DNA from: an uncultured Candidatus Actinomarina sp.
Lineage (GTDB): Bacteria > Actinomycetota > Acidimicrobiia > Actinomarinales > Actinomarinaceae
Assembly (NCBI GenBank): GCA_902615855.1
Contig: CACMQN010000001.1
Coordinates: 81,592 to 145,591 of the forward strand
Reading direction: 5' to 3'
DNA length: 64,000 nt
In this document: positions 12,527 through 49,971 of the stretch, in pieces
Position numbering within the stretch: position 1 is the stretch's first letter
How the letters are laid out: the number at the start of each line of letters is the position of its first letter
Translations under genes and position numbers: made by a program
Notes under the pieces: generated by a model
Database searches by the model: none
The model's input: the letters and a program-made list of their open reading frames with translations, nothing else
Told to the model about the DNA's origin: nothing

Positions 12527-13042
12527 TTAAAGGTCATGAATTACACTAGTAACAACACCCCAGATTTGTGCTTCACTTTTTCCATTCAACTCTATAGGCT
12601 CATAGTCTTCATTCTCAGGTTGCAAGACAACTGATGATCTTTTTTTAATATATCTTTTTACTGTTAGCTCACCATCAATTATTGCTATTACCACATTTCC
12701 ATTTTCGGCTTTGATGCTTTTATCGACTACCAAAATATCATTTGGGAATATTCCAGCGTTTATCATTGAATTTCCTGATGCCCTTACCAAAAATGTTGAT
12801 GCAGGATGTTTTACTAGATATTGGTTGAGGTCAATCTTGTCTTCTAAGTAGTCATCTGCAGGGGATGGGAAGCCTGCTGCAACTCGGTCTCCGTATAGAG
12901 GAATTTCGTAAAGGCCTTTACTTACTATTTCTGAAATGTATTTAACTTTACTTTCGGGTACGCGAATCGCTTTAGTTGCCTCGCCATACTTGCCTTGACC
13001 TCTAGGCCTTCCTGCTCCTTTTCTTGCTCCACCTTTTGGCAT
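12527..13042 (-). CDS. umuD: UmuD-like S24 self-cleaving peptidase with extended basic N-terminus
   Basis: Aligns by eye to E. coli UmuD (PLYGDRVAAGFPSPADDYLEDKIDLNQYL, ASGNSM Ser, TVKR Lys). It carries about 35 extra N-terminal residues, MPKGGARKGAGRPRGQGK... Confidence 0.8.
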   Translation of the reverse strand: MPKGGARKGAGRPRGQGKYGEATKAIRVPESKVKYISEIVSKGLYEIPLYGDRVAAGFPSPADDYLEDKIDLNQYLVKHPASTFLVRASGNSMINAGIFPNDILVVDKSIKAENGNVVIAIIDGELTVKRYIKKRSSVVLQPENEDYEPIELNGKSEAQIWGVVTSVIHDL

Positions 13043-13100: not shown

Positions 13101-14366
13101 ATGAAAAATAAAATTTTTGCTTTAGTCGATTGTAATAACTTTTACGCATCTTGTGAGAGGGTGTTTAATCCAAAACTGGAAGGAAAACCTATCGTTGTTC
13201 TCTCAAACAACGATGGATGTATTGTTGCAAGATCAAATGAGGCAAAAGCGTTAGGCATTCCAATGGGTGCTCCACTATTTAAATATGAACAATTGATAAA
13301 GAGAAACAATGTCCATGTATTTTCATCGAACTATACATTTTATGGAGACATGTCAGCAAGAGTAATGACATCTTTACGATCAATAGTTGGAGACATCGAA
13401 ATCTATTCAATTGATGAAGCTTTTTTAGATATTAGCAAGTTTTATTATTGCGACTTAACGGAGACAGCGAATGAAATACGGAGACTAATAAAGCAGTGGA
13501 CAGGGATACCAATCTCGATTGGCATTGGACCCTCAAAAACCCTGGCAAAAGCTGCAAACAGACAAGCAAAAAAATATGAGGAATCAAATGTCTTTGATAT
13601 ACGTGAAGAGTCAGAGAGAGTACGAGTTCTAAAAGACCTCGAACTAGAAGATATATGGGGTATCTCAACAAGATGGGGTAGAAGACTAAGAAAAATTGGT
13701 ATCAATTCAGCATATGAACTCTCAACAGGAGATCCAAGACAGATACGAAAGACTCTGAGCATTGTAGGAGAGAGAATCTATCATGAGCTAAATGGCATAT
13801 CATGTATGCAAATTGAAGAAGTTAAAAATAAGAAAAACATAATTTCTTCAAAGTCGTTTGGGAAAAAAGTAACAAAAGTATATGAACTTGAAGAAGCTGT
13901 TTCAACATACGTTGCAAGAGCTTGTGAAAAGTTACGAGCTCAGAATTCAAGAGCTGGAGGTATTCACGTATTTTTAAGAACAAGTCCATTTATAGAAGAT
14001 GAAAGAAAATATAGCAATGGAATGAGCTCTTTCTTTACAATTCCAACTAGTAATACTTCAAAAATAATCAAAGAAGCGAAAAGATTAACAAATAAACTTT
14101 TTTTGCCAAATTATGAGTATCAGAAAATAGGCGTAATACTCTTGGATATATCTGATGCCAAATATGAACAGTTTAGCTTCTATGAGCATGAGAATTATGA
14201 GAGATCCGATATTCTCATGGATTCACTAGACCAGTTAAATGATAGATTTGGAAATGGAACTCTATTTATGGGAGCACAGGGAATTCAAAAAAACTGGAAA
14301 ATGCGAGCTGATAGAAAATCAGCTGCTTACACAACCAAATTGATAGACATTCCTAAAGTTGATTAA
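13101..14366 (+). CDS. umuC: Y-family DNA polymerase, UmuC-like (Pol V catalytic subunit)
   Basis: [51 protein letters not shown] and YSIDEAF are near-identical in pattern to the E. coli UmuC N-terminus. Confidence 0.9.
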
Positions 14367-27090: not shown

Positions 27091-27915
27091 TTAACTTTTT
27101 ACAACTTTTCCTTTAATAATTCTATTTCTTATTGCTGCTGAAATTGTATCTGCAGTAAGAACTAAAATAATTGTACATATTAGAACAGTTCCCGCTCTCG
27201 GAAAATCTCTAAACCTTAATTGATTTATAAGCTCTTGACCAACACCACCGGCGCCTACAACACCTAATACTGCAGAAGCTCTGAGGTTTATTTCAAATCT
27301 ATAAAGCCAGTAGGAAGTTATTGTTGGCATTACTTGAGGAATTACACCAAATGAAAGCTCATTTAATTTAGACCCTCCTGATGATTTTATAGCTTCTAAA
27401 GGTCCTTCATCTATTCCCTCAATAACTTCTGAAGATAGTTTTCCCAATGTGCCAATTGAATGTATTCCTACTGCTAATGTTCCAGTGAATGGACCAAGAC
27501 CAGTGATTGGTAAGAAAACAAACGCTAAAATCAATTCAGGAAAAGCCCTTATCGCATTCAATATTTGTTTAGTTGCTCTACTTACAATTCCAACAGCAAC
27601 ATTTTGTGCAGCTAAAAAAGATACTGGAAAACTAAATATTGCACCAATTACTGTTCCAGCCCATGCTATAAATAAGGATTCAAATACTTTAGGAATTATT
27701 CTATCAAATGCTTCTTGACTTAGATCAAGAGGAAACATAGCTCCAACTAATATACCAATTTGCCTTGGAGCATCGAGTATTCTTTCTAGAGTTATTTCAA
27801 GTCCAGCTGCTGACCATAATGACCCAATTATGATTAATGTGGTCAATGAATATTTTAATATTCGTTGACTTATTGGCTGTTGTGGAATCTTCATATAATT
27901 TTTCTTCTTATCCAT
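27091..27915 (-). CDS. phnE: phosphonate ABC transporter permease
   Basis: PhnE-type blocks (EAIKSSGGSKLNELSFGVIPQVMP, VLGVVGAGGVG). Its stop abuts the ftsK stop. Confidence 0.8.
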   Translation of the reverse strand: MDKKKNYMKIPQQPISQRILKYSLTTLIIIGSLWSAAGLEITLERILDAPRQIGILVGAMFPLDLSQEAFDRIIPKVFESLFIAWAGTVIGAIFSFPVSFLAAQNVAVGIVSRATKQILNAIRAFPELILAFVFLPITGLGPFTGTLAVGIHSIGTLGKLSSEVIEGIDEGPLEAIKSSGGSKLNELSFGVIPQVMPTITSYWLYRFEINLRASAVLGVVGAGGVGQELINQLRFRDFPRAGTVLICTIILVLTADTISAAIRNRIIKGKVVKS

Positions 27916-28679
27916 ACGCTGAATTGTTCAATAAGTATGACAACTACAAGAATTATTACAATAATTGGAGATATTCTATCAAACCTTAGAAATATTCTCT
28001 GTGTTTCAATAATTCTACCAACCCCACCTGCACCAACTAAGCCAAGAATTACACTAGCTCTTATGCATAACTCAAAAATGTAAAGAAAATAAGCAGTATA
28101 ATTTGGCAACACTTGTGGTAATGCAGATGTAAAAACTGATTGATTATGTGATGACCCCGTTGCTTTTGCAGCTTCCATAGGTCCAGGATCTATACTGTCA
28201 ATTGTCTCAGACAGAAGTTTACCCATTATTGCAAGTGAAAACATAATTAATGCGAGTACACCAGCAAATGGACCTATCCCCACAGCAACTGTGAATAACA
28301 TAGCCCAAAACAAATCCGGGATTGTTCTTATAAGATTTAAAAATGATTTATATAAAAAATAAGAGTATTTGTTTAAATTTGTAGCTCTTGATGCGTAAAA
28401 AGCTAATGGCAAAGCAACCGCACATCCAACGATACTTGCAAGGATTGCTATCTGTACAGTTTCAAGTAATGCATCTGCCGTGTTTTCCCAAGCCCATTGC
28501 CATTTTGGATTGAATAATGGATCTGTAACAATTGCTCGATTAGCTAGATTTTCTTTAAAGTCTTGAAGGTTGAAACCTATTCTTCTAAAAGAAAAAATCG
28601 TAAATAGCATTGCTGCAGGTATACCAATAGTTACAAGGTACGTTGGTGCCGGTTTTTTTGGTATATTAATCATCACCAA
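27891..28679 (-). CDS. phnE: phosphonate ABC transporter permease (second copy)
   Basis: Paralogous PhnE blocks (EAAKATGSSHNQSVFTSALPQVLP, ILGLVGAGGVG). Confidence 0.8.
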   Translation of the reverse strand: MVMINIPKKPAPTYLVTIGIPAAMLFTIFSFRRIGFNLQDFKENLANRAIVTDPLFNPKWQWAWENTADALLETVQIAILASIVGCAVALPLAFYASRATNLNKYSYFLYKSFLNLIRTIPDLFWAMLFTVAVGIGPFAGVLALIMFSLAIMGKLLSETIDSIDPGPMEAAKATGSSHNQSVFTSALPQVLPNYTAYFLYIFELCIRASVILGLVGAGGVGRIIETQRIFLRFDRISPIIVIILVVVILIEQFSVWIRRKII

Positions 28680-29433
28680 TTAGATCAGAAGATTTAATTG
28701 ATCTTCCATATATATTTTCAAAATCTTCATCGGAAACATCGTTTACATTTCCATCAAATACAAGTTTTCCATCTCTAAGTCCAATAAGTCTATCTCCAAA
28801 TTCCTTTGCTAAATCAAGAAAATGCAAATTAACAATCGTTGTTATTCCAAGCTCAGTATTTATTTTCTTTAAATAACTCATTACAACTCTTGATGTGATT
28901 GGATCTAGGGAAGCAACAGGCTCATCAGCCAACATGACTTTTGGTTTTTGAGATAAAGCTCTGGCAATACCTACTCTTTGTTGTTGACCACCAGATAAGT
29001 TTGAAGCTCTAACATATGCTTTTTCTAATATCTCAACCTGATTTAAAGCTTCAAATGCCATTTGCTTTTGTTCTTTAGGCCAAAGTCCTAGTATTGATCT
29101 AATTGTTGAAATGTTGCTCAATCTGCCAGTAAGAACATTTTTCAAAACGGTTGACCTATTAACAAGATTAAATGTTTGAAAAATCATTCCAATCTGTGAT
29201 CTAATTTGTTTTAATTCTCTTTTTTTTGCACTTGTAACATTTTTATTTTCCAAATAGACAGAACCAGTAGAAGGTTTCACAAGATTATTTACTGTTCTTA
29301 GAAGGGTAGATTTACCTGCACCGGAAAGACCTACAATAATAATAAAATCCCCATCTTTGATTTCTAGGTTTAAATTTTTAAGTGCCTCAACGCCTCCTGG
29401 ATAGGTGACACTTACATTTTCAAATTTAATCAT
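28666..29433 (-). CDS. phnC: phosphonate ABC transporter ATP-binding protein
   Basis: Walker A GLSGAGKST, signature LSGGQQQR, Walker B VMLADEP. Context with phnD and phnE. Confidence 0.85.
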   Translation of the reverse strand: MIKFENVSVTYPGGVEALKNLNLEIKDGDFIIIVGLSGAGKSTLLRTVNNLVKPSTGSVYLENKNVTSAKKRELKQIRSQIGMIFQTFNLVNRSTVLKNVLTGRLSNISTIRSILGLWPKEQKQMAFEALNQVEILEKAYVRASNLSGGQQQRVGIARALSQKPKVMLADEPVASLDPITSRVVMSYLKKINTELGITTIVNLHFLDLAKEFGDRLIGLRDGKLVFDGNVNDVSDEDFENIYGRSIKSSDLIGDD

Positions 29434-29445
29434 AATAAGAATTTT

Positions 29446-29471
29446 AACCGGGCTGAAAAATCAACCCGGTT
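29446..29471 (-). other. intercistronic stem-loop between phnD and phnC
   Basis: AACCGGG-12 nt-CCCGGTT forms a 7-bp GC-rich stem. No U-tract follows on the coding (minus) strand, so it is more likely an mRNA-stability or partial-attenuation element than a full terminator. Confidence 0.4.
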
Positions 29472-29481
29472 AAAAAATCGT

Positions 29482-30615
29482 TTATTCGTCGTAAAGTCCG
29501 AATTCTTCGGCTGCTTGTTTTACAACATCAAATTCTGAGTTATCTGCAGGTACGACATCTGTCCAACCATAAATTTCATCCATAACTGCGGCTCCTTCAT
29601 CAGTAGCCATGTAGTCAGATAATATCTGATATATTTTTGATTTTATATCTTCTGGTAAGTCAGATCTTACAGCAACAACATCATTAGGAATCTCAGCAGA
29701 AATTCCTATAGCAATAACTTTTTCACCAACATCTGGGTTAGTTTTTCTTAAAGTTCTTCTTGCATCATCATAGGTAACGCCAAATTTAGCGTCGCCATTG
29801 TACAATCCGGAAATAACTCCGTCATGAGATCCTGCAAAAACTTGCGTGATATCAGATTTGTAATCAATACCCATATTTTTCAACTGTAATGAAGGATATA
29901 GATATCCTGATGTTGAACCCTCTTCAACAAATAATACCTTTTCACCCCTTAATACATTTAAATCAGCCTCGCATGCATATCCTGGGCTGACTGTTACATC
30001 AACTCCATCAATATTTCTAACCTCTGGAATTTTTCCGTCATCACCAAAGGTCCAACCAACTTGTAATGCTTTAACATCTGGAGATTCTGTTTCAGAACCT
30101 AAAATGAGTGTTGGAACACCGTCAATATTTTCAAATGCTCCTATTACAGGTGGTGAATCACAAACACTTGCATCTGTTGTCCAGAAATTTGCGTGGTATG
30201 AACCAGAACCATATCTTACAACTTTTGCAATTGCCTCAATTCTTGTTGGGAAAACATTTAGTGCATTAACATAGCCCAAAGTATTAAATGCTCCAATGTC
30301 AGCTTGGCCAGATCCCATTGCAACTAATAAACCAGAAAAGTCACTAGTTACAAATCCTTCAACCTCAATACCAAGTCCATCAGTTAAAACTTTCATTAAT
30401 GGTTTGATATTGTCTTGAAGATCAGCTTGTTCTGCACTTGGAATGAAGCCGAATGTAATTTTATCTAAAACTTCAGCTGTAGTTACTGCTGGAGAATCTA
30501 GAGTTTCTACCTCTTCTTCAACAACTGCAGATTCTTCTACTGTCTCCTCTTCAGCACCACCGCAAGCAGCTAGTACAAGTGAGAGACAAAGAAGTATAAG
30601 AAATGTTTTTTTCAC
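29482..30615 (-). CDS. phnD: phosphonate/phosphite ABC transporter substrate-binding lipoprotein
   Basis: Lipobox LVLAACGG, an acidic linker, then the PhnD-type periplasmic binding fold (FGFIPSAE, GSTSGYLYP). GGAGGA RBS upstream. Confidence 0.8.
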   Translation of the reverse strand: MKKTFLILLCLSLVLAACGGAEEETVEESAVVEEEVETLDSPAVTTAEVLDKITFGFIPSAEQADLQDNIKPLMKVLTDGLGIEVEGFVTSDFSGLLVAMGSGQADIGAFNTLGYVNALNVFPTRIEAIAKVVRYGSGSYHANFWTTDASVCDSPPVIGAFENIDGVPTLILGSETESPDVKALQVGWTFGDDGKIPEVRNIDGVDVTVSPGYACEADLNVLRGEKVLFVEEGSTSGYLYPSLQLKNMGIDYKSDITQVFAGSHDGVISGLYNGDAKFGVTYDDARRTLRKTNPDVGEKVIAIGISAEIPNDVVAVRSDLPEDIKSKIYQILSDYMATDEGAAVMDEIYGWTDVVPADNSEFDVVKQAAEEFGLYDE

Positions 30616-30695
30616 ATTTTCCTCCGCTAGATTACACTCTCATCATACAATTTATGTCAGAAACTGCTTGAGTATTAAGTTAAAATTTTGTAAAT

Positions 30696-31157
30696 TTATA
30701 AATCGTTTGGTACGTATCCATATTCTCGCGAAAGAATATTTCCATCTGTATCAATAATTAAAGATATTGGTTGACCAATAATTTTTAAATTATCTCTCAT
30801 ATCAGATGTAGAAAACCCTATTGTGATTTCACCTTTTAAATTTTCTGATACCCAAGTCATAGTGGTGTCTACATCACTATGGGCCAATGCGATTACATCA
30901 TAGTTTTGACTAATTGCTGCTAGATTAGCTTCCAAGAGAGGCAACTCCTCTCTGCAAATTCCTCAATAATCAGCCCAGAAAACAATAAGTGTTTTCTTAT
31001 TAGTAAGATCTTCATTAACTAAATTTCCATTTTCGTCTTCGTATACAAGTTCTTGAATTGATGATGCTGATGCACCTTGAGTTGGTTCATCTGAAGTACT
31101 ATCCGATCCTGATGAACAAAAAGATAGTAGAAGCAAAAGTATAATTGTTTTTTTCAT
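30696..31157 (-). CDS. TlpA/redoxin-like thiol:disulfide oxidoreductase lipoprotein, candidate selenoprotein (UxxC) with in-frame TGA
   Basis: ORFs 30963..31157 and 30696..30944 share a frame and are joined by a single TGA (complement of 30963..30965). The junction reads LIVFWADY-U-GICREELP, the FWAxWCxxC..E.P redoxin motif. N-terminal signal peptide plus Cys (LLLLSFCSSGS). Confidence 0.6.
30935..30953 (-). promoter_or_regulatory. SECIS-like hairpin downstream of the in-frame UGA
   Basis: The mRNA reads UGA GGAAUUUGC AGAGAGG-AGUUG-CCUCUCU. The stem is a perfect 7 bp, the 5-nt apical loop contains GU, and the loop starts 16 nt after the UGA. Confidence 0.5.
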
Positions 31158-31204
31158 ACATTTATCCTAGTTATATTTAAATTAAACATTGCTAACCTAA
31201 AAAT

Positions 31205-32413
31205 ATGAAAATTGGTTTTTTAACAATTGGTACAGAAATATTGCTAGGGGATACAGTCAATACAAACCTAACGAACCTTGGCAAACGTTTATATGAAAAT
31301 GGATTTAAATTAGATAAAAATATTACTATTTCAGATCAAGTAGATGAAATTAATAATGCACTTAATTTTTTACTCAATGATTGTGATGTAGTTATCACTT
31401 CAGGAGGTCTTGGTCCTACCGAAGATGATATAACAAAGGAAACAATTTCTGAATCTTTATCATTGGAACTTGTTCTCGATGATGAACATTTAGAGTGGAT
31501 GAAAGAACGCTGGAAAGCTCGAGGGTTAATTATGCCTGAAACAAATATAAAGCAAGCTTATATTCCAGATGGTAGTGAAAAGCTAAACAACACTCAAGGA
31601 ACCGCACCTGGTATAAAAATTAATCATGACAATAAATTTATATTTATCTTTCCAGGTCCGCCAAGAGAGTTTATACCTCTTGTTGAGGATGAGTTGATCC
31701 CTTTTCTAAGTAAAAATTATGAAAAAGAAAATACGGATTATCAATTTGTTATGTTTTTTAATCAGGCAGAATCATCATTAGCTGCTGAAATAAATAAATT
31801 TAAACCAGAAGGTTTAGATATTGCTTATCTTGCAAGTAAAGGGATCATTAAATTACGATTTGATAAAAACTCTGTAACAAATGATCAATCTGATATGTTT
31901 CTGCAAAAAATAGGTGAAACATTTGAAGATGATATTTTGTCTTACAAAAATATAACAGTTGAAAAAGTACTTGGAAATTTAATTAGTGACTCAAACCTTC
32001 AAATCTCTTTTGTTGAAAGTATCACTGGGGGTTTGATTTCCTCATTGCTTGTTAAAAATCCAGGGATTAGTAAATACTTTATTGGTTCCGATATTGTTTA
32101 TACAAATGAATCAAAACATTTATTATTGAACGATGAAAATATTAATTTTGATGATTGGGAAGAATTAACATACAATCTTACAGAATCATCTTTAAATAAA
32201 TACAAATCTAGTGTAGCCCTTACAATTTTAGGGGAGGCAGGACCTATTTCATCTAGTCAATACCCTGTGGGAACAATCTTTATTTGTATTTCAAACGGAG
32301 AGAAAACAGTTATTTCGGACCATAAAATGAATGGAAATAGAGCCGAAATCTTAGAAAGAGCAGCAAATAAAGCTCAATGGGAATTGATTAAATTCATAAA
32401 AAACTTGTATTAG
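31205..32413 (+). CDS. cinA: CinA family protein (MoCF-binding domain plus nicotinamide-nucleotide amidohydrolase PncC domain)
   Basis: N-terminal IGTEILLGDTVNTN..TSGGLGPTEDDITKE and a C-terminal ESITGG block. Confidence 0.85.
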   Translation: MKIGFLTIGTEILLGDTVNTNLTNLGKRLYENGFKLDKNITISDQVDEINNALNFLLNDCDVVITSGGLGPTEDDITKETISESLSLELVLDDEHLEWMKERWKARGLIMPETNIKQAYIPDGSEKLNNTQGTAPGIKINHDNKFIFIFPGPPREFIPLVEDELIPFLSKNYEKENTDYQFVMFFNQAESSLAAEINKFKPEGLDIAYLASKGIIKLRFDKNSVTNDQSDMFLQKIGETFEDDILSYKNITVEKVLGNLISDSNLQISFVESITGGLISSLLVKNPGISKYFIGSDIVYTNESKHLLLNDENINFDDWEELTYNLTESSLNKYKSSVALTILGEAGPISSSQYPVGTIFICISNGEKTVISDHKMNGNRAEILERAANKAQWELIKFIKNLY

Positions 32414-35798: not shown

Positions 35799-36519
35799 AT
35801 CTTATATGTCAGGAACAGGCAATGATTTTATATGTACTGAATATGATCGAGACTTGTCAGATATAGAAATTATTTCAATTGTTAGTGACTCACTTTTTCC
35901 TATCGATGGAGTGATATTGGTAGAGGGTATAGATGATTCAACTGTGAAAATGCATTATTTTAATAATGACGGAACTCCTGCTGAACTATGTGTAAATGGT
36001 GTACGTTGTACAGCAAAGTTTGCAGTAGACAATAACTTAGTAAATACTAAAAATTTAATTGTCAGAGCTCCAGTTGGTGATATAAAAGCATTTGTTGAAA
36101 ATAATTATGTAAAAATTGAAGCACCTTTTCCTACGACTGGTGGAAGTATCGAAATTGATAGTTACATATGTACGACTAGTGAAGTTGGAAATCCTCATCT
36201 TATGGTTGAAGTCGATGATGTAGAGAGATTTGATCTCGATAAATTTTCAGTAAATGCCAGAAAACTAGATGTATTTTCTAATGGTATAAATATTGAAATC
36301 TTTTCGGTTGTTGAACGCAAATTTATTTACGCAAGAGTAAACGAAAGGGGGGTTGGAGAGACAGACGCATGTGGTTCTGGAGCTTTAGCTTTGTTTACTT
36401 ATTTAAGAGAAATTAATAAAGTTGATGATAATGCAGTTGTTTTATATCCTGGTGGAGAGCTTGAACTATCTTATGAAAATGAAAAGTTGTATTTAAAAGG
36501 TGAAGTTACATATCTCTAA
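35788..36519 (+). CDS. dapF: diaminopimelate epimerase
   Basis: MSGTGNDFI, catalytic Cys contexts NGVRC and ETDACGSGA, GNPH. Confidence 0.85.
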   Translation: MVNESYMSGTGNDFICTEYDRDLSDIEIISIVSDSLFPIDGVILVEGIDDSTVKMHYFNNDGTPAELCVNGVRCTAKFAVDNNLVNTKNLIVRAPVGDIKAFVENNYVKIEAPFPTTGGSIEIDSYICTTSEVGNPHLMVEVDDVERFDLDKFSVNARKLDVFSNGINIEIFSVVERKFIYARVNERGVGETDACGSGALALFTYLREINKVDDNAVVLYPGGELELSYENEKLYLKGEVTYL

Positions 36520-37093
36520 TTAACGAAACAACTTTTCCTATAGGTTGTATATTTTCATTCACGAGAATTTTTTCATAGTTTTTATTTGCAGGTACTAGAT
36601 ATTGTTTACCCTGAATATTTTTGAGAAATTTAATAGTACCTTCTGAATTATTTATAAGAAATGCACCTATATCTCCATTTTTAATTGGTTCATTTTTATT
36701 AATAATAACTAAATCCTTTTCATGAATTCCCTCATCGATCATCGAATCTCCCGATACTGATAATGCAAATAGATTAGATTTTTCATTAGTATCTGGATAA
36801 TTCACAGTTCCTATAACGTTTTCTTCAGCCATAAGTAAAGATCCTGCAGCAATTTCTCCTAGTATCGGAATTTTCTTATTCGAAAGTTGGTTGTTTACAG
36901 TTAAAGCACGAGATTTTTTATAGTTTTTTTGGAGTAATCCTGATTGAATTAGTTTTTCAAGGTGATATTGAACTGTGCTTGTTGATTTAAGACTCACACC
37001 TTCGCAAATTTCTCTTACTGAAGGTGCAAATCCATTTTTTTCGATAAATATATTTATATAATTTAAAATATTTTTTTGTTTTTCAGACACCAC
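36506..37093 (-). CDS. lexA: SOS repressor LexA
   Basis: N-terminal winged-helix (GFAPSVREI..STSTVQYHLEKL), Ala-Gly cleavage site (GEIAAGS), VSGDSM Ser and IKFLK Lys. GTG start. Confidence 0.9.
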   Translation of the reverse strand: MVSEKQKNILNYINIFIEKNGFAPSVREICEGVSLKSTSTVQYHLEKLIQSGLLQKNYKKSRALTVNNQLSNKKIPILGEIAAGSLLMAEENVIGTVNYPDTNEKSNLFALSVSGDSMIDEGIHEKDLVIINKNEPIKNGDIGAFLINNSEGTIKFLKNIQGKQYLVPANKNYEKILVNENIQPIGKVVSLIRDM

Positions 37094-39464: not shown

Positions 39465-39537
39465 GCGGAAGTAGCTCAGCTGGTAGAGCGTAACCTTGCC
39501 AAGGTTAAGGCCGCGGGTTCGAACCCCGTCTTCCGCT
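39465..39537 (+). tRNA. tRNA-Gly (GCC)
   Basis: Hand-folded cloverleaf: acceptor GCGGAAG/CTTCCGC, anticodon arm TAACC-TTGCCAA-GGTTA, T-loop TTCGAAC. No encoded CCA. Confidence 0.9.
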
Positions 39538-39541
39538 CACT

Positions 39542-39612
39542 GGCGACGTGGCGGAGTGGCTACGCAGAGGTCTGCAAAACCTTGTACACCGGTTCGATTC
39601 CGGTCGTCGCCT
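39542..39612 (+). tRNA. tRNA-Cys (GCA)
   Basis: Acceptor GGCGACG/CGTCGCC, anticodon arm GAGGT-CTGCAAA-ACCTT, T-arm ACCGG-TTCGATT-CCGGT. Lies 4 nt after tRNA-Gly. Confidence 0.9.
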
Positions 39613-39621
39613 CTAATAATT

Positions 39622-49224: not shown

Positions 49225-49971
49225 TTAGCTAGTTAAAATTCTTATAGATAACATAATTGAGACAACAACAAGAATTGGTCTAATTAATTTATCACCAACC
49301 TTTATTGCAGACTTTGAACCTAGATATGCACCACATATTCCTCCTACTGCCATAATCAATCCGAGTTCCCACATTACGAAGCCTTGAACTGCAAATATAA
49401 TAAATGCCGCAAAGTTAGAGGCAAAGTTTAATAATTTTGATGTTGCTGTTGATTCAAGAAGAGATTGATTTTTGAACACGAGAAATAACATTACAAAAAA
49501 TGAACCTGTCCCTGGTCCAAAAAAACCATCATAAAAACCAATTAAAAAAATTAGTGGTGTTAATAAAACTATATAATTGCTTAAGTCTGTCTTAACTTGT
49601 CTATTGATGATAAAAAATAAGGCAACTGTTATTAATAGGATTGGGATCAAAGTTCTTAATATTTCATCCGAAAGTCTACTAACCATTAAAGTTCCAACTG
49701 ATGATCCAATAAAAGACAATATAAAATATTTATTTCTATGTATATCTGTCAAATACCCGTTAGCGTAGTAATTTCTTGATGATGTAAATGTACTAAATGA
49801 GGATTGAAATTTATTTGTACCCAACACTGTTAAAGGATTTATGCCTACTAACAACATCGATGGAGTAGTTAAAAGACCACCTCCACCAGCAATAGAGTCA
49901 ATAAATGAAGCTAGTATAGAAATTCCAAAAAGAAATAAATATACTGTTTCAATGTTACTTGTAATGTCCAT
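49225..49971 (-). CDS. TauE/SafE (DUF81) family anion exporter
   Basis: About 7-8 TM segments and an N-terminal AGGGGLLTTP block. Confidence 0.7.
   Translation of the reverse strand: MDITSNIETVYLFLFGISILASFIDSIAGGGGLLTTPSMLLVGINPLTVLGTNKFQSSFSTFTSSRNYYANGYLTDIHRNKYFILSFIGSSVGTLMVSRLSDEILRTLIPILLITVALFFIINRQVKTDLSNYIVLLTPLIFLIGFYDGFFGPGTGSFFVMLFLVFKNQSLLESTATSKLLNFASNFAAFIIFAVQGFVMWELGLIMAVGGICGAYLGSKSAIKVGDKLIRPILVVVSIMLSIRILTS

Follow-up and report, generated by a model that had tools for sequence, protein, structure and literature searches.

A minus-strand gene in the 64-kb stretch of Candidatus (Ca.) Actinomarina DNA analysed here (contig CACMQN010000001.1; hereafter the window) encodes a small redoxin, a TlpA/ResA-like thioredoxin-fold protein, and is interrupted by a single in-frame TGA. 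We conclude with high confidence that this UGA, codon 65, encodes selenocysteine (Sec) at the active site of an intact gene. The codon falls on the first cysteine of a CxxC redox centre and recurs in species representatives across the order Actinomarinales, the sequence beyond it evolves under purifying selection, and it is followed by a conserved RNA hairpin that resembles a bacterial selenocysteine insertion sequence (SECIS). A sequence-only reading of the window had proposed a selenoprotein here, and every test named there for overturning the proposal that was run came out in its favour.

The gene consists of two minus-strand open reading frames (ORFs), 30963..31157 (64 aa) and 30696..30944 (82 aa), in the same frame, with a single TGA (30963..30965) between them. 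Re-reading the sequence confirmed both this arrangement and the proposed read-through product of 153 aa, MKKTIILLLLLSFCSSGS...KKTLIVFWADY-[TGA]-GICREELPLLEANL...GQPISLIIDTDGNILSREYGYVPNDL. Pfam AhpC-TSA, Redoxin and Thioredoxin all match it above cut-off, and the best matches among Protein Data Bank sequences are putative DsbE 3gl3 (E = 1e-7), the thiol-disulfide oxidoreductase 2lja, TlpA 1jfu and ResA. In these alignments FWADY[TGA]GICREELP lies against FWASWCGPCRQSFP, which places the TGA on the first Cys of CxxC in 3gl3, 1jfu and 2lja, where the sequence-only reading had put it from the motif; the GQP motif further downstream aligns with the cis-proline of the matched structures.

The fold family is TlpA/ResA-like. 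An AlphaFold (AF2) model of a natural Cys form of the protein, P0014, is of moderate confidence (predicted local distance difference test 65, predicted template modelling score 0.63) and has TlpA/ResA topology, with strands at 35-39, 45-49 and 55-60 and the active site at 64-67 (P0014 numbering; residues 65-68 of the window protein), where helix 68-82 begins. Extracytoplasmic reductases make up nearly all of its 50 best fold matches (ResA, DsbE, CcmG, StoA, Etrx and DsbF; template modelling score about 0.5), which include Etrx1 and Etrx2 of pneumococcus as well as DsbF and DsbE of M. tuberculosis. Curated equivalog cut-offs were missed for ResA (NF002854, 34.6 vs 170 bits), TlpA (NF047696, 33.9 vs 230 bits) and DsbE (TIGR00385, 32.3 vs 123 bits). 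Scoring below these curated models while passing the generic Pfam ones, the redoxin therefore forms a distinct, lineage-specific subfamily.

A scan covering one genome per Genome Taxonomy Database species detected the gene 23 times, nearly always in genomes titled Ca. Actinomarina or Actinomarinales or, more broadly, Acidimicrobiaceae or Actinomycetota. Two of the contigs with the gene, JBJKUL010000001 and CALSSQ010000001, are 1 Mb long. One genome is labelled Methanobacteriota: the metagenome-assembled genome (MAG) 'Methanobacteriota archaeon MED870' carries an Actinomarinales redoxin locus (L026, PAEE01000009.1) that is collinear with the window at 72% nucleotide identity, and this MAG is probably mis-binned or mislabelled. 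Codon 65 is TGA in 23/23 Actinomarinales species representatives, at 48-93% amino acid identity, as well as in 8/8 sampled metagenome contigs carrying a homologue called with Trp at this position (P0026) and in two further distant metagenome forms. A codon alignment of 26 orthologous sequences has TGA in 25 and TGC in one.

Public gene calls obscure this codon. A protein search yielded more than 280 full-length homologues; Trp ('W') occupies the UGA position in 119 of the 120 listed, and Cys ('C') in the other. We traced P0026 to eight contigs, none of which gives P0026 under translation table 11; the DNA there reads TGA, and the 'W' of P0026 is therefore a table-4 gene-caller artefact and not TGG. 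Elsewhere the gene has been cut, as the sequence-only reading had anticipated, into halves of 63 and 102 aa that are stored as separate entries in protein libraries. Relatives of the redoxin are narrow in range, with 19 proteins at E<1e-10 in an exhaustive search of 1.8 billion representatives.

Cysteine in homologues at the UGA position, another expectation of that reading, was found in several forms. The single TGC sequence (L009) is a natural Cys form 99% identical to a Sec form, and distant Cys forms read FWADYCPTC (L035) or FWADYCITC (L036-38). Judged from the alignment, UGA and Cys at the catalytic position make up a classical Sec/Cys pair. The TGC in L009 may mean that Sec gave way to Cys very recently in the population; otherwise it reflects a mistake in the assembly or the consensus.

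Selection on the protein crosses the UGA. After the TGA the ratio of nonsynonymous to synonymous polymorphism (pN/pS) is 0.146 in the close Actinomarina set and 0.289 in all 26 sequences; before it the ratio is 0.27 and 0.46, or 0.17 and 0.29 over the last 30 codons. Purifying selection after the TGA is as strong as before, and none of the 26 aligned orthologues contains an extra stop or a frameshift. These ratios and the unbroken frames lead us to exclude both a pseudogene and termination at the UGA; as judged from selection, the sequence 3' of the UGA is translated.

Downstream of the UGA the RNA runs GGAAUUUGC AGAGAGG AGUUG CCUCUCU. It forms a 7-bp stem (30935..30953) that begins 9 nt after the UGA and carries a 5-nt loop, with a UGA-loop spacing of 16 nt, all of which was confirmed when the sequence was re-read. 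The upper six pairs form in 17/17 distinct sequences, giving a conserved core of 6 bp; the seventh pair, an A-U at the bottom, persists in 12/17. Within the core, one A-U pair becomes G.U in seven of the 17, and one G-C pair becomes C-G through changes on both sides in L031, with the same swap in the distant TGA forms L033 and L034. The swap alters the protein, replacing Glu with Gln (L031) or with Arg (L033, L034) and Leu with Val. A lower helix (UUU/AAG), which had been suggested as a possible extension of the stem, is broken in 10/17 distinct relatives and was rejected.

The stem also constrains codon choice. Its codons GAG, GAG, CCT and CTC never vary as long as the amino acid is retained; GAG and CTC are rare in the window (22% of Glu and 3.7% of Leu codons), and the joint chance of the stem codons is 6e-4. 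Seven of 55 conserved degenerate columns use a single codon, and four of those seven are stem codons (hypergeometric estimate from these counts ~1e-4), while flanking synonymous sites vary freely. Distant Cys forms lack the hairpin even where the RELPV peptide is retained, with CCA for CCT and GTG for CTC. Their minimum free energies (MFE) are -1.2 and -2.8 kcal/mol, vs -8.4 to -12.5 kcal/mol in the five TGA forms that were folded (the window, L027, L031, L033 and L034); the 38-nt element of the window has an MFE of -11.3 kcal/mol. The hairpin thus co-occurs with the UGA, the exception being the recent Cys variant L009, in which the stem is still present. On this comparison of relatives, the RNA stem is selected beyond the protein's need. 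The expectation that relatives would conserve both UGA and hairpin without decay was therefore borne out, in 25/26 sequences for the codon and 17/17 for the six core pairs. We note that locus L009:287-745 (LUMQ01006488.1, GCA_001628845.1) retains the full stem with the loop AGUUA, as do the TGA forms L018, L022, L030 and L032.

Bacterial SECIS (bSECIS) elements are described by a consensus of a 3-9 nt loop, an upper stem of 4-16 bp, a UGA-loop distance of 16-37 nt and an MFE <= -7.5 kcal/mol, with a G within the loop's first two positions and commonly a G or U next to it (PMC13188914). The redoxin hairpin agrees with all of these constraints: its loop is AGUUG, with G at position 2 and then U, its stem is 6-7 bp, and its spacing of 16 nt lies at the lower limit.

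Sec-decoding capacity in this genus has been reported in a preprint by Nielsen & Lui (April 2026; bioRxiv 10.64898/2026.04.03.716425), who found that each of the 84 complete Actinomarina genomes has selC, selA and selD, together with a divergent selB below profile threshold and no ybbB. Their deep-Sep prediction gives ~5 selenoproteins per Actinomarina genome, many of them missed by gene callers, and the families they name are a 78-aa family, SelD ('MRLT', 342-346 aa) and a K07090 family (bioRxiv 10.64898/2026.04.03.716425). We scanned metagenome contigs with the back-translated pattern MRLT..G-U-[GA]-x-K and recovered Sec-type selD on 22 contigs of 32-35% guanine plus cytosine (GC). These genes read MRLTE[YF]S[HR]G[SA]G-TGA-ACKLS.. 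and are 342 or 345 aa where complete, fitting the description in the preprint. The selD gene of this lineage itself encodes a selenoprotein (L042-L066, e.g. L053:7690-8718, and L067, L077 and L098; MRLTEYSHGSG-TGA-ACKLS). The intact TGA is present on two NCBI genome-assembly contigs, CABXFZ01 and CACIVO01, whose accession series resembles that of single-cell genomes carrying the redoxin, and one copy is named by NCBI 'SelD, partial [Acidimicrobiaceae bacterium]'. Public calls of selD are commonly shortened to 317-318 aa; calls of 341 aa, judging from their length, are probably table-4 'W' readings. No tRNA-Sec was found at 18 selD loci, nor was selA or selB found beside selD, and blastn of the selD loci against the window and the redoxin loci gave no overlap. 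The RNA after the selD UGA has a lower stem that includes the UGA (UGAGCA..UGCUCA) and a small hairpin with a C-rich triloop without G.

The N-terminus of the redoxin reads MKK, then a hydrophobic run, then Cys14, and this Cys column (-56) is invariant in 26/26 orthologues. The lipobox is canonical, IAAC or TTAC, in distant orthologues, and the Actinomarina forms have Phe at -1. Based on this sequence pattern, Cys14 is probably a lipoprotein anchor and the protein extracytoplasmic.

Several observations weigh against our interpretation. Sec at residue 65 is a prediction from sequence, albeit an almost certain one. We found no selA, selB, selD or tRNA-Sec in the 64-kb window, and a tRNA scan detected no tRNA-Sec within 10 kb of the redoxin in the 23 relatives. 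In our look-ups selD (on CABXFZ01, CACIVO01, JAOFMJ01, LUML01 and LULZ01) and the redoxin were not found on the same assembly, and the link to Sec machinery is indirect, consisting of one unreviewed preprint and circumstantial matches. The hairpin had been called conspicuous in this AT-rich DNA; it is under selection among relatives, but on a single sequence its stability is not exceptional against dinucleotide-preserving shuffles (z = -0.4 over 61 nt and -1.3 over 38 nt), so that its significance derives only from the comparison with relatives. Formal covariation is modest, with 30/500 shuffles reaching the observed score, because the stem hardly varies. Rfam SECIS models gave no match in the window at the gathering threshold or in 30600..31250 at E up to 10, the scans returning only tRNA-Gly, tRNA-Cys, tRNA-Val and chance snoRNA matches; this is expected, since Rfam covers bacterial SECIS poorly, and the Actinomarina preprint likewise found no SECIS element (bioRxiv 10.64898/2026.04.03.716425). 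We sought a SECIS motif common to the selD and redoxin hairpins and none was evident. Finally, Phe at -1 is atypical for a lipobox.

We weighed these points against four other explanations of the locus. The gene might be dead, a TGY (Cys) codon having mutated or been misread as TGA: a single base separates TGC or TGT from TGA, L009 has TGC, and gene callers do split the gene. This is scarcely credible when the TGA stands in 25/26 independent orthologues order-wide, the codons after it show a pN/pS of 0.146 with no stops or frameshifts, and the error would have to be shared systematically by single-cell genomes, MAGs and many metagenomes; because the TGA recurs in dozens of independent assemblies, we rule out a sequencing error. 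It is also exceedingly improbable that translation truly terminates at the UGA to give a 64-aa secreted peptide, with the 82-aa ORF (TTG at 30944) made separately or not at all and the hairpin serving in pausing or regulation. Neither half would be a viable thioredoxin fold, and the downstream half lacks a signal peptide yet contains the cis-Pro and beta-strands of the same domain. Frame and selection cross the TGA in every relative and the Cys forms are single polypeptides. In favour of termination are the literal standard-code reading and the fact that the hairpin covers the downstream TTG start.

Decoding of the UGA as an ordinary amino acid, either Trp in a code-4-like scheme or through near-cognate read-through, would give W-G-I-C without selenium. 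In line with this are the 'W' in 119/120 listed homologues and an AT-rich genome of 32% GC, but the 'W' that we checked (in the eight P0026 contigs) is TGA under table 4. As had been noted from the sequence, TGA serves as a stop elsewhere in the window: it terminates 11/57 long ORFs (4997, 6337 and 12526 are three of the end points) and is therefore an ordinary stop here, which excludes global reassignment. The codon corresponds to the nucleophilic residue of the catalytic site in a CxxC fold, where Trp would abolish redox chemistry, the conserved hairpin that tracks the TGA would be left unexplained, and the genus carries tRNA-Sec (bioRxiv 10.64898/2026.04.03.716425). We consider this explanation very unlikely. 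The remaining alternative accepts Sec and questions the hairpin, supposing that the true element lies elsewhere or that the divergent SelB works differently. The post-UGA RNA of selD has another shape, with a C-rich loop without G, selB is called divergent in the preprint, and the Rfam SECIS models are null, all of which would suit this idea. Against it, the hairpin agrees with every bSECIS constraint, is under synonymous-site and compensatory selection and is gone in the distant Cys forms, and a single organism is known to contain bacterial SECIS elements that are unlike each other (PMC13188914). There is, in our estimate, a small chance that it is correct.

Taking UGA65 as a Sec codon and the hairpin as its SECIS, we propose the following mechanism. 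During translation the hairpin (6-7 bp, loop AGUUG) would act as a bacterial SECIS, bound by a SelB-type factor with Sec-tRNA(Sec) that would deliver Sec to the UGA so that termination does not occur. Directed by its signal peptide, the protein would cross the membrane, probably to become a lipoprotein. Once outside the cytoplasm, the Sec65/Cys68 pair would cycle between selenenylsulfide and selenol/thiol and may work as a disulfide reductase or isomerase, as the two-Cys proteins ResA, CcmG, TlpA and Etrx do. The first candidate substrate to consider in an aerobic actinobacterium would be apocytochrome c, on which ResA acts; exported proteins would be another possibility, for instance the neighbouring PhnD, which has two extra cysteines.

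The redoxin is a narrow lineage-specific subfamily within an already known kind of selenoprotein, and the novelty attached to it by the sequence-only reading was overstated. Marine UxxC TlpA-like selenoproteins have been known since 2005, when Zhang, Fomenko & Gladyshev described a 'thiol-disulfide isomerase-like' UxxC selenoprotein (cd02966, TlpA-like) from four Sargasso Sea sequences (PMC1088965; listed in PMC13188914). Other established TlpA-class selenoproteins are the 'Redoxin family protein (UxxC)' and the 'UGC-containing TlpA family protein'. Like the Sargasso Sea protein, the redoxin is a TlpA-like fold of marine metagenomes with Sec first in UxxC and widespread Cys homologues, and it may belong to the same 2005 family, a likeness drawn here by description. 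Organism, lipoprotein signal, synteny and order-wide conservation were not part of the 2005 work. The ResA-like WAxxUGC selenoprotein (NF041054) shares the ResA/TlpA fold and has Sec right after WAxx, as in W-A-D-Y-U here. The redoxin is not a member of NF041054, scoring 26 bits vs a cut-off of 300, having U-G-I-C instead of U-G-C and spanning 153 aa vs 354 model positions.

Fold, topology, the FWAxW/Y-[C/U]-xx-C-..E.P context and the cis-Pro are common to the redoxin and to ResA, CcmG (DsbE), TlpA and Etrx. These proteins are anchored by membrane or lipid outside the cytoplasm, Etrx1 and Etrx2 as surface lipoproteins, and the same is predicted for the redoxin. Unlike them, the redoxin has Sec for the nucleophilic Cys and Tyr for the usual Trp before it, and it has no adjacent ccdA or resBC, its neighbour being phnD. 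The Nielsen & Lui preprint deals with the same genus; the words 'thioredoxin' and 'redoxin' are absent from its text, which predicts 69 'families', and its supplement is without sequences.

selD switches between Sec and Cys, unlike the redoxin, whose UGA is present in 23/23 species representatives. From this one might speculate that the redoxin is the one selenoprotein kept throughout Actinomarinales (23/23) and the core client that sustains the Sec pathway in a streamlined genome of ~1.1 Mb, an extension that we regard as doubtful. Were it true, a lipid-anchored surface selenoenzyme encoded beside PhnD, and perhaps transcribed together with it, might link the use of selenium to the scavenging of phosphorus or to redox defence of the envelope. 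Ca. Actinomarina is among the most abundant surface-ocean bacteria, and an order-wide Sec reductase would be a concrete client for the Sec machinery reported in it. The gene is mis-annotated on a large scale, as pieces of 63-64 and 82-102 aa or carrying an erroneous table-4 Trp, and the redoxin gives a defined peptide to seek in marine metaproteomes. It also serves as a worked example of how bacterial SECIS constraint becomes visible, as frozen rare codons and a compensatory change that costs two substitutions. We regard the result as sound and as an annotation correction, not a new kind of biology; it will not surprise a selenoprotein specialist.

Table 1. Features of the redoxin locus, in window coordinates.
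Feature	Position	Strand	Details and evidence
Complete selenoprotein gene, TlpA/ResA-like thioredoxin-fold thiol:disulfide oxidoreductase (Sec predicted)	30696..31157	-	153 codons + TAA; sequence, Pfam, structure matches, selection
Predicted signal peptide ending in conserved Cys14 (MKKTIILLLLLSFC)	31116..31157	-	Read from translation and orthologue alignment
In-frame UGA, codon 65, predicted Sec, first residue of U-G-I-C	30963..30965	-	Orthologue and structure alignments
Cys68, resolving Cys of UxxC	30954..30956	-	Invariant 26/26; aligns with second Cys of CxxC
bSECIS-like hairpin	30935..30953	-	5' arm AGAGAGG 30947..30953, loop AGUUG 30942..30946, 3' arm CCUCUCU 30935..30941
Pro130 of GQP, cis-proline facing the active site	30768..30770	-	Invariant; aligns with GMP or GIP of DsbE and TlpA
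phnD-phnC-phnE-phnE phosphonate ATP-binding cassette (ABC) transporter, downstream	27091..30615	-	Pfam Phosphonate-bd and ABC_tran on orthologous loci

The last base of the redoxin TAA is 30696 and the first of phnD, on the same strand, is 30615, which agrees with the 80-nt gap to phnDCEE given by the sequence-only reading. The gene order cinA(-)/redoxin/phnD is conserved across Actinomarinales, and we found no terminator-like site in the 80-nt gap between redoxin and phnD; the conserved position upstream of phnDCEE and the absence of such a site suggest that redoxin and phn genes may be co-transcribed. The window is collinear with the orthologous loci over ~20 kb and shares 84-94% nucleotide identity with named Ca. 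Actinomarina single-cell genomes, the highest value, 94%, being to AH-321-L10. Besides the redoxin, a scan of the window for genes with in-frame TGA gave only antisense or spurious candidates. The window has 32% GC. Other genes in it include PNPase, an F420-type LLM oxidoreductase, dapB/dapA, ftsK, cinA-recA, miaB and the glycine cleavage system.

At 49225..49971 (minus strand) a 248-aa ORF for a TauE/SafE-like membrane protein, of the K07090 kind, has no in-frame TGA and does not end in TGA. The tRNA-Gly(GCC)-tRNA-Cys(GCA) pair at 39465..39613 (plus strand) recurs ~8.4 kb from the redoxin in almost every Actinomarinales locus. Visual inspection of the translations also picked out a LexA/UmuD-like peptidase ORF (12527..13042, minus strand), which adjoins a Y-family polymerase-like ORF (13101..14366, plus strand), as well as another LexA-like repressor at 36506..37093.

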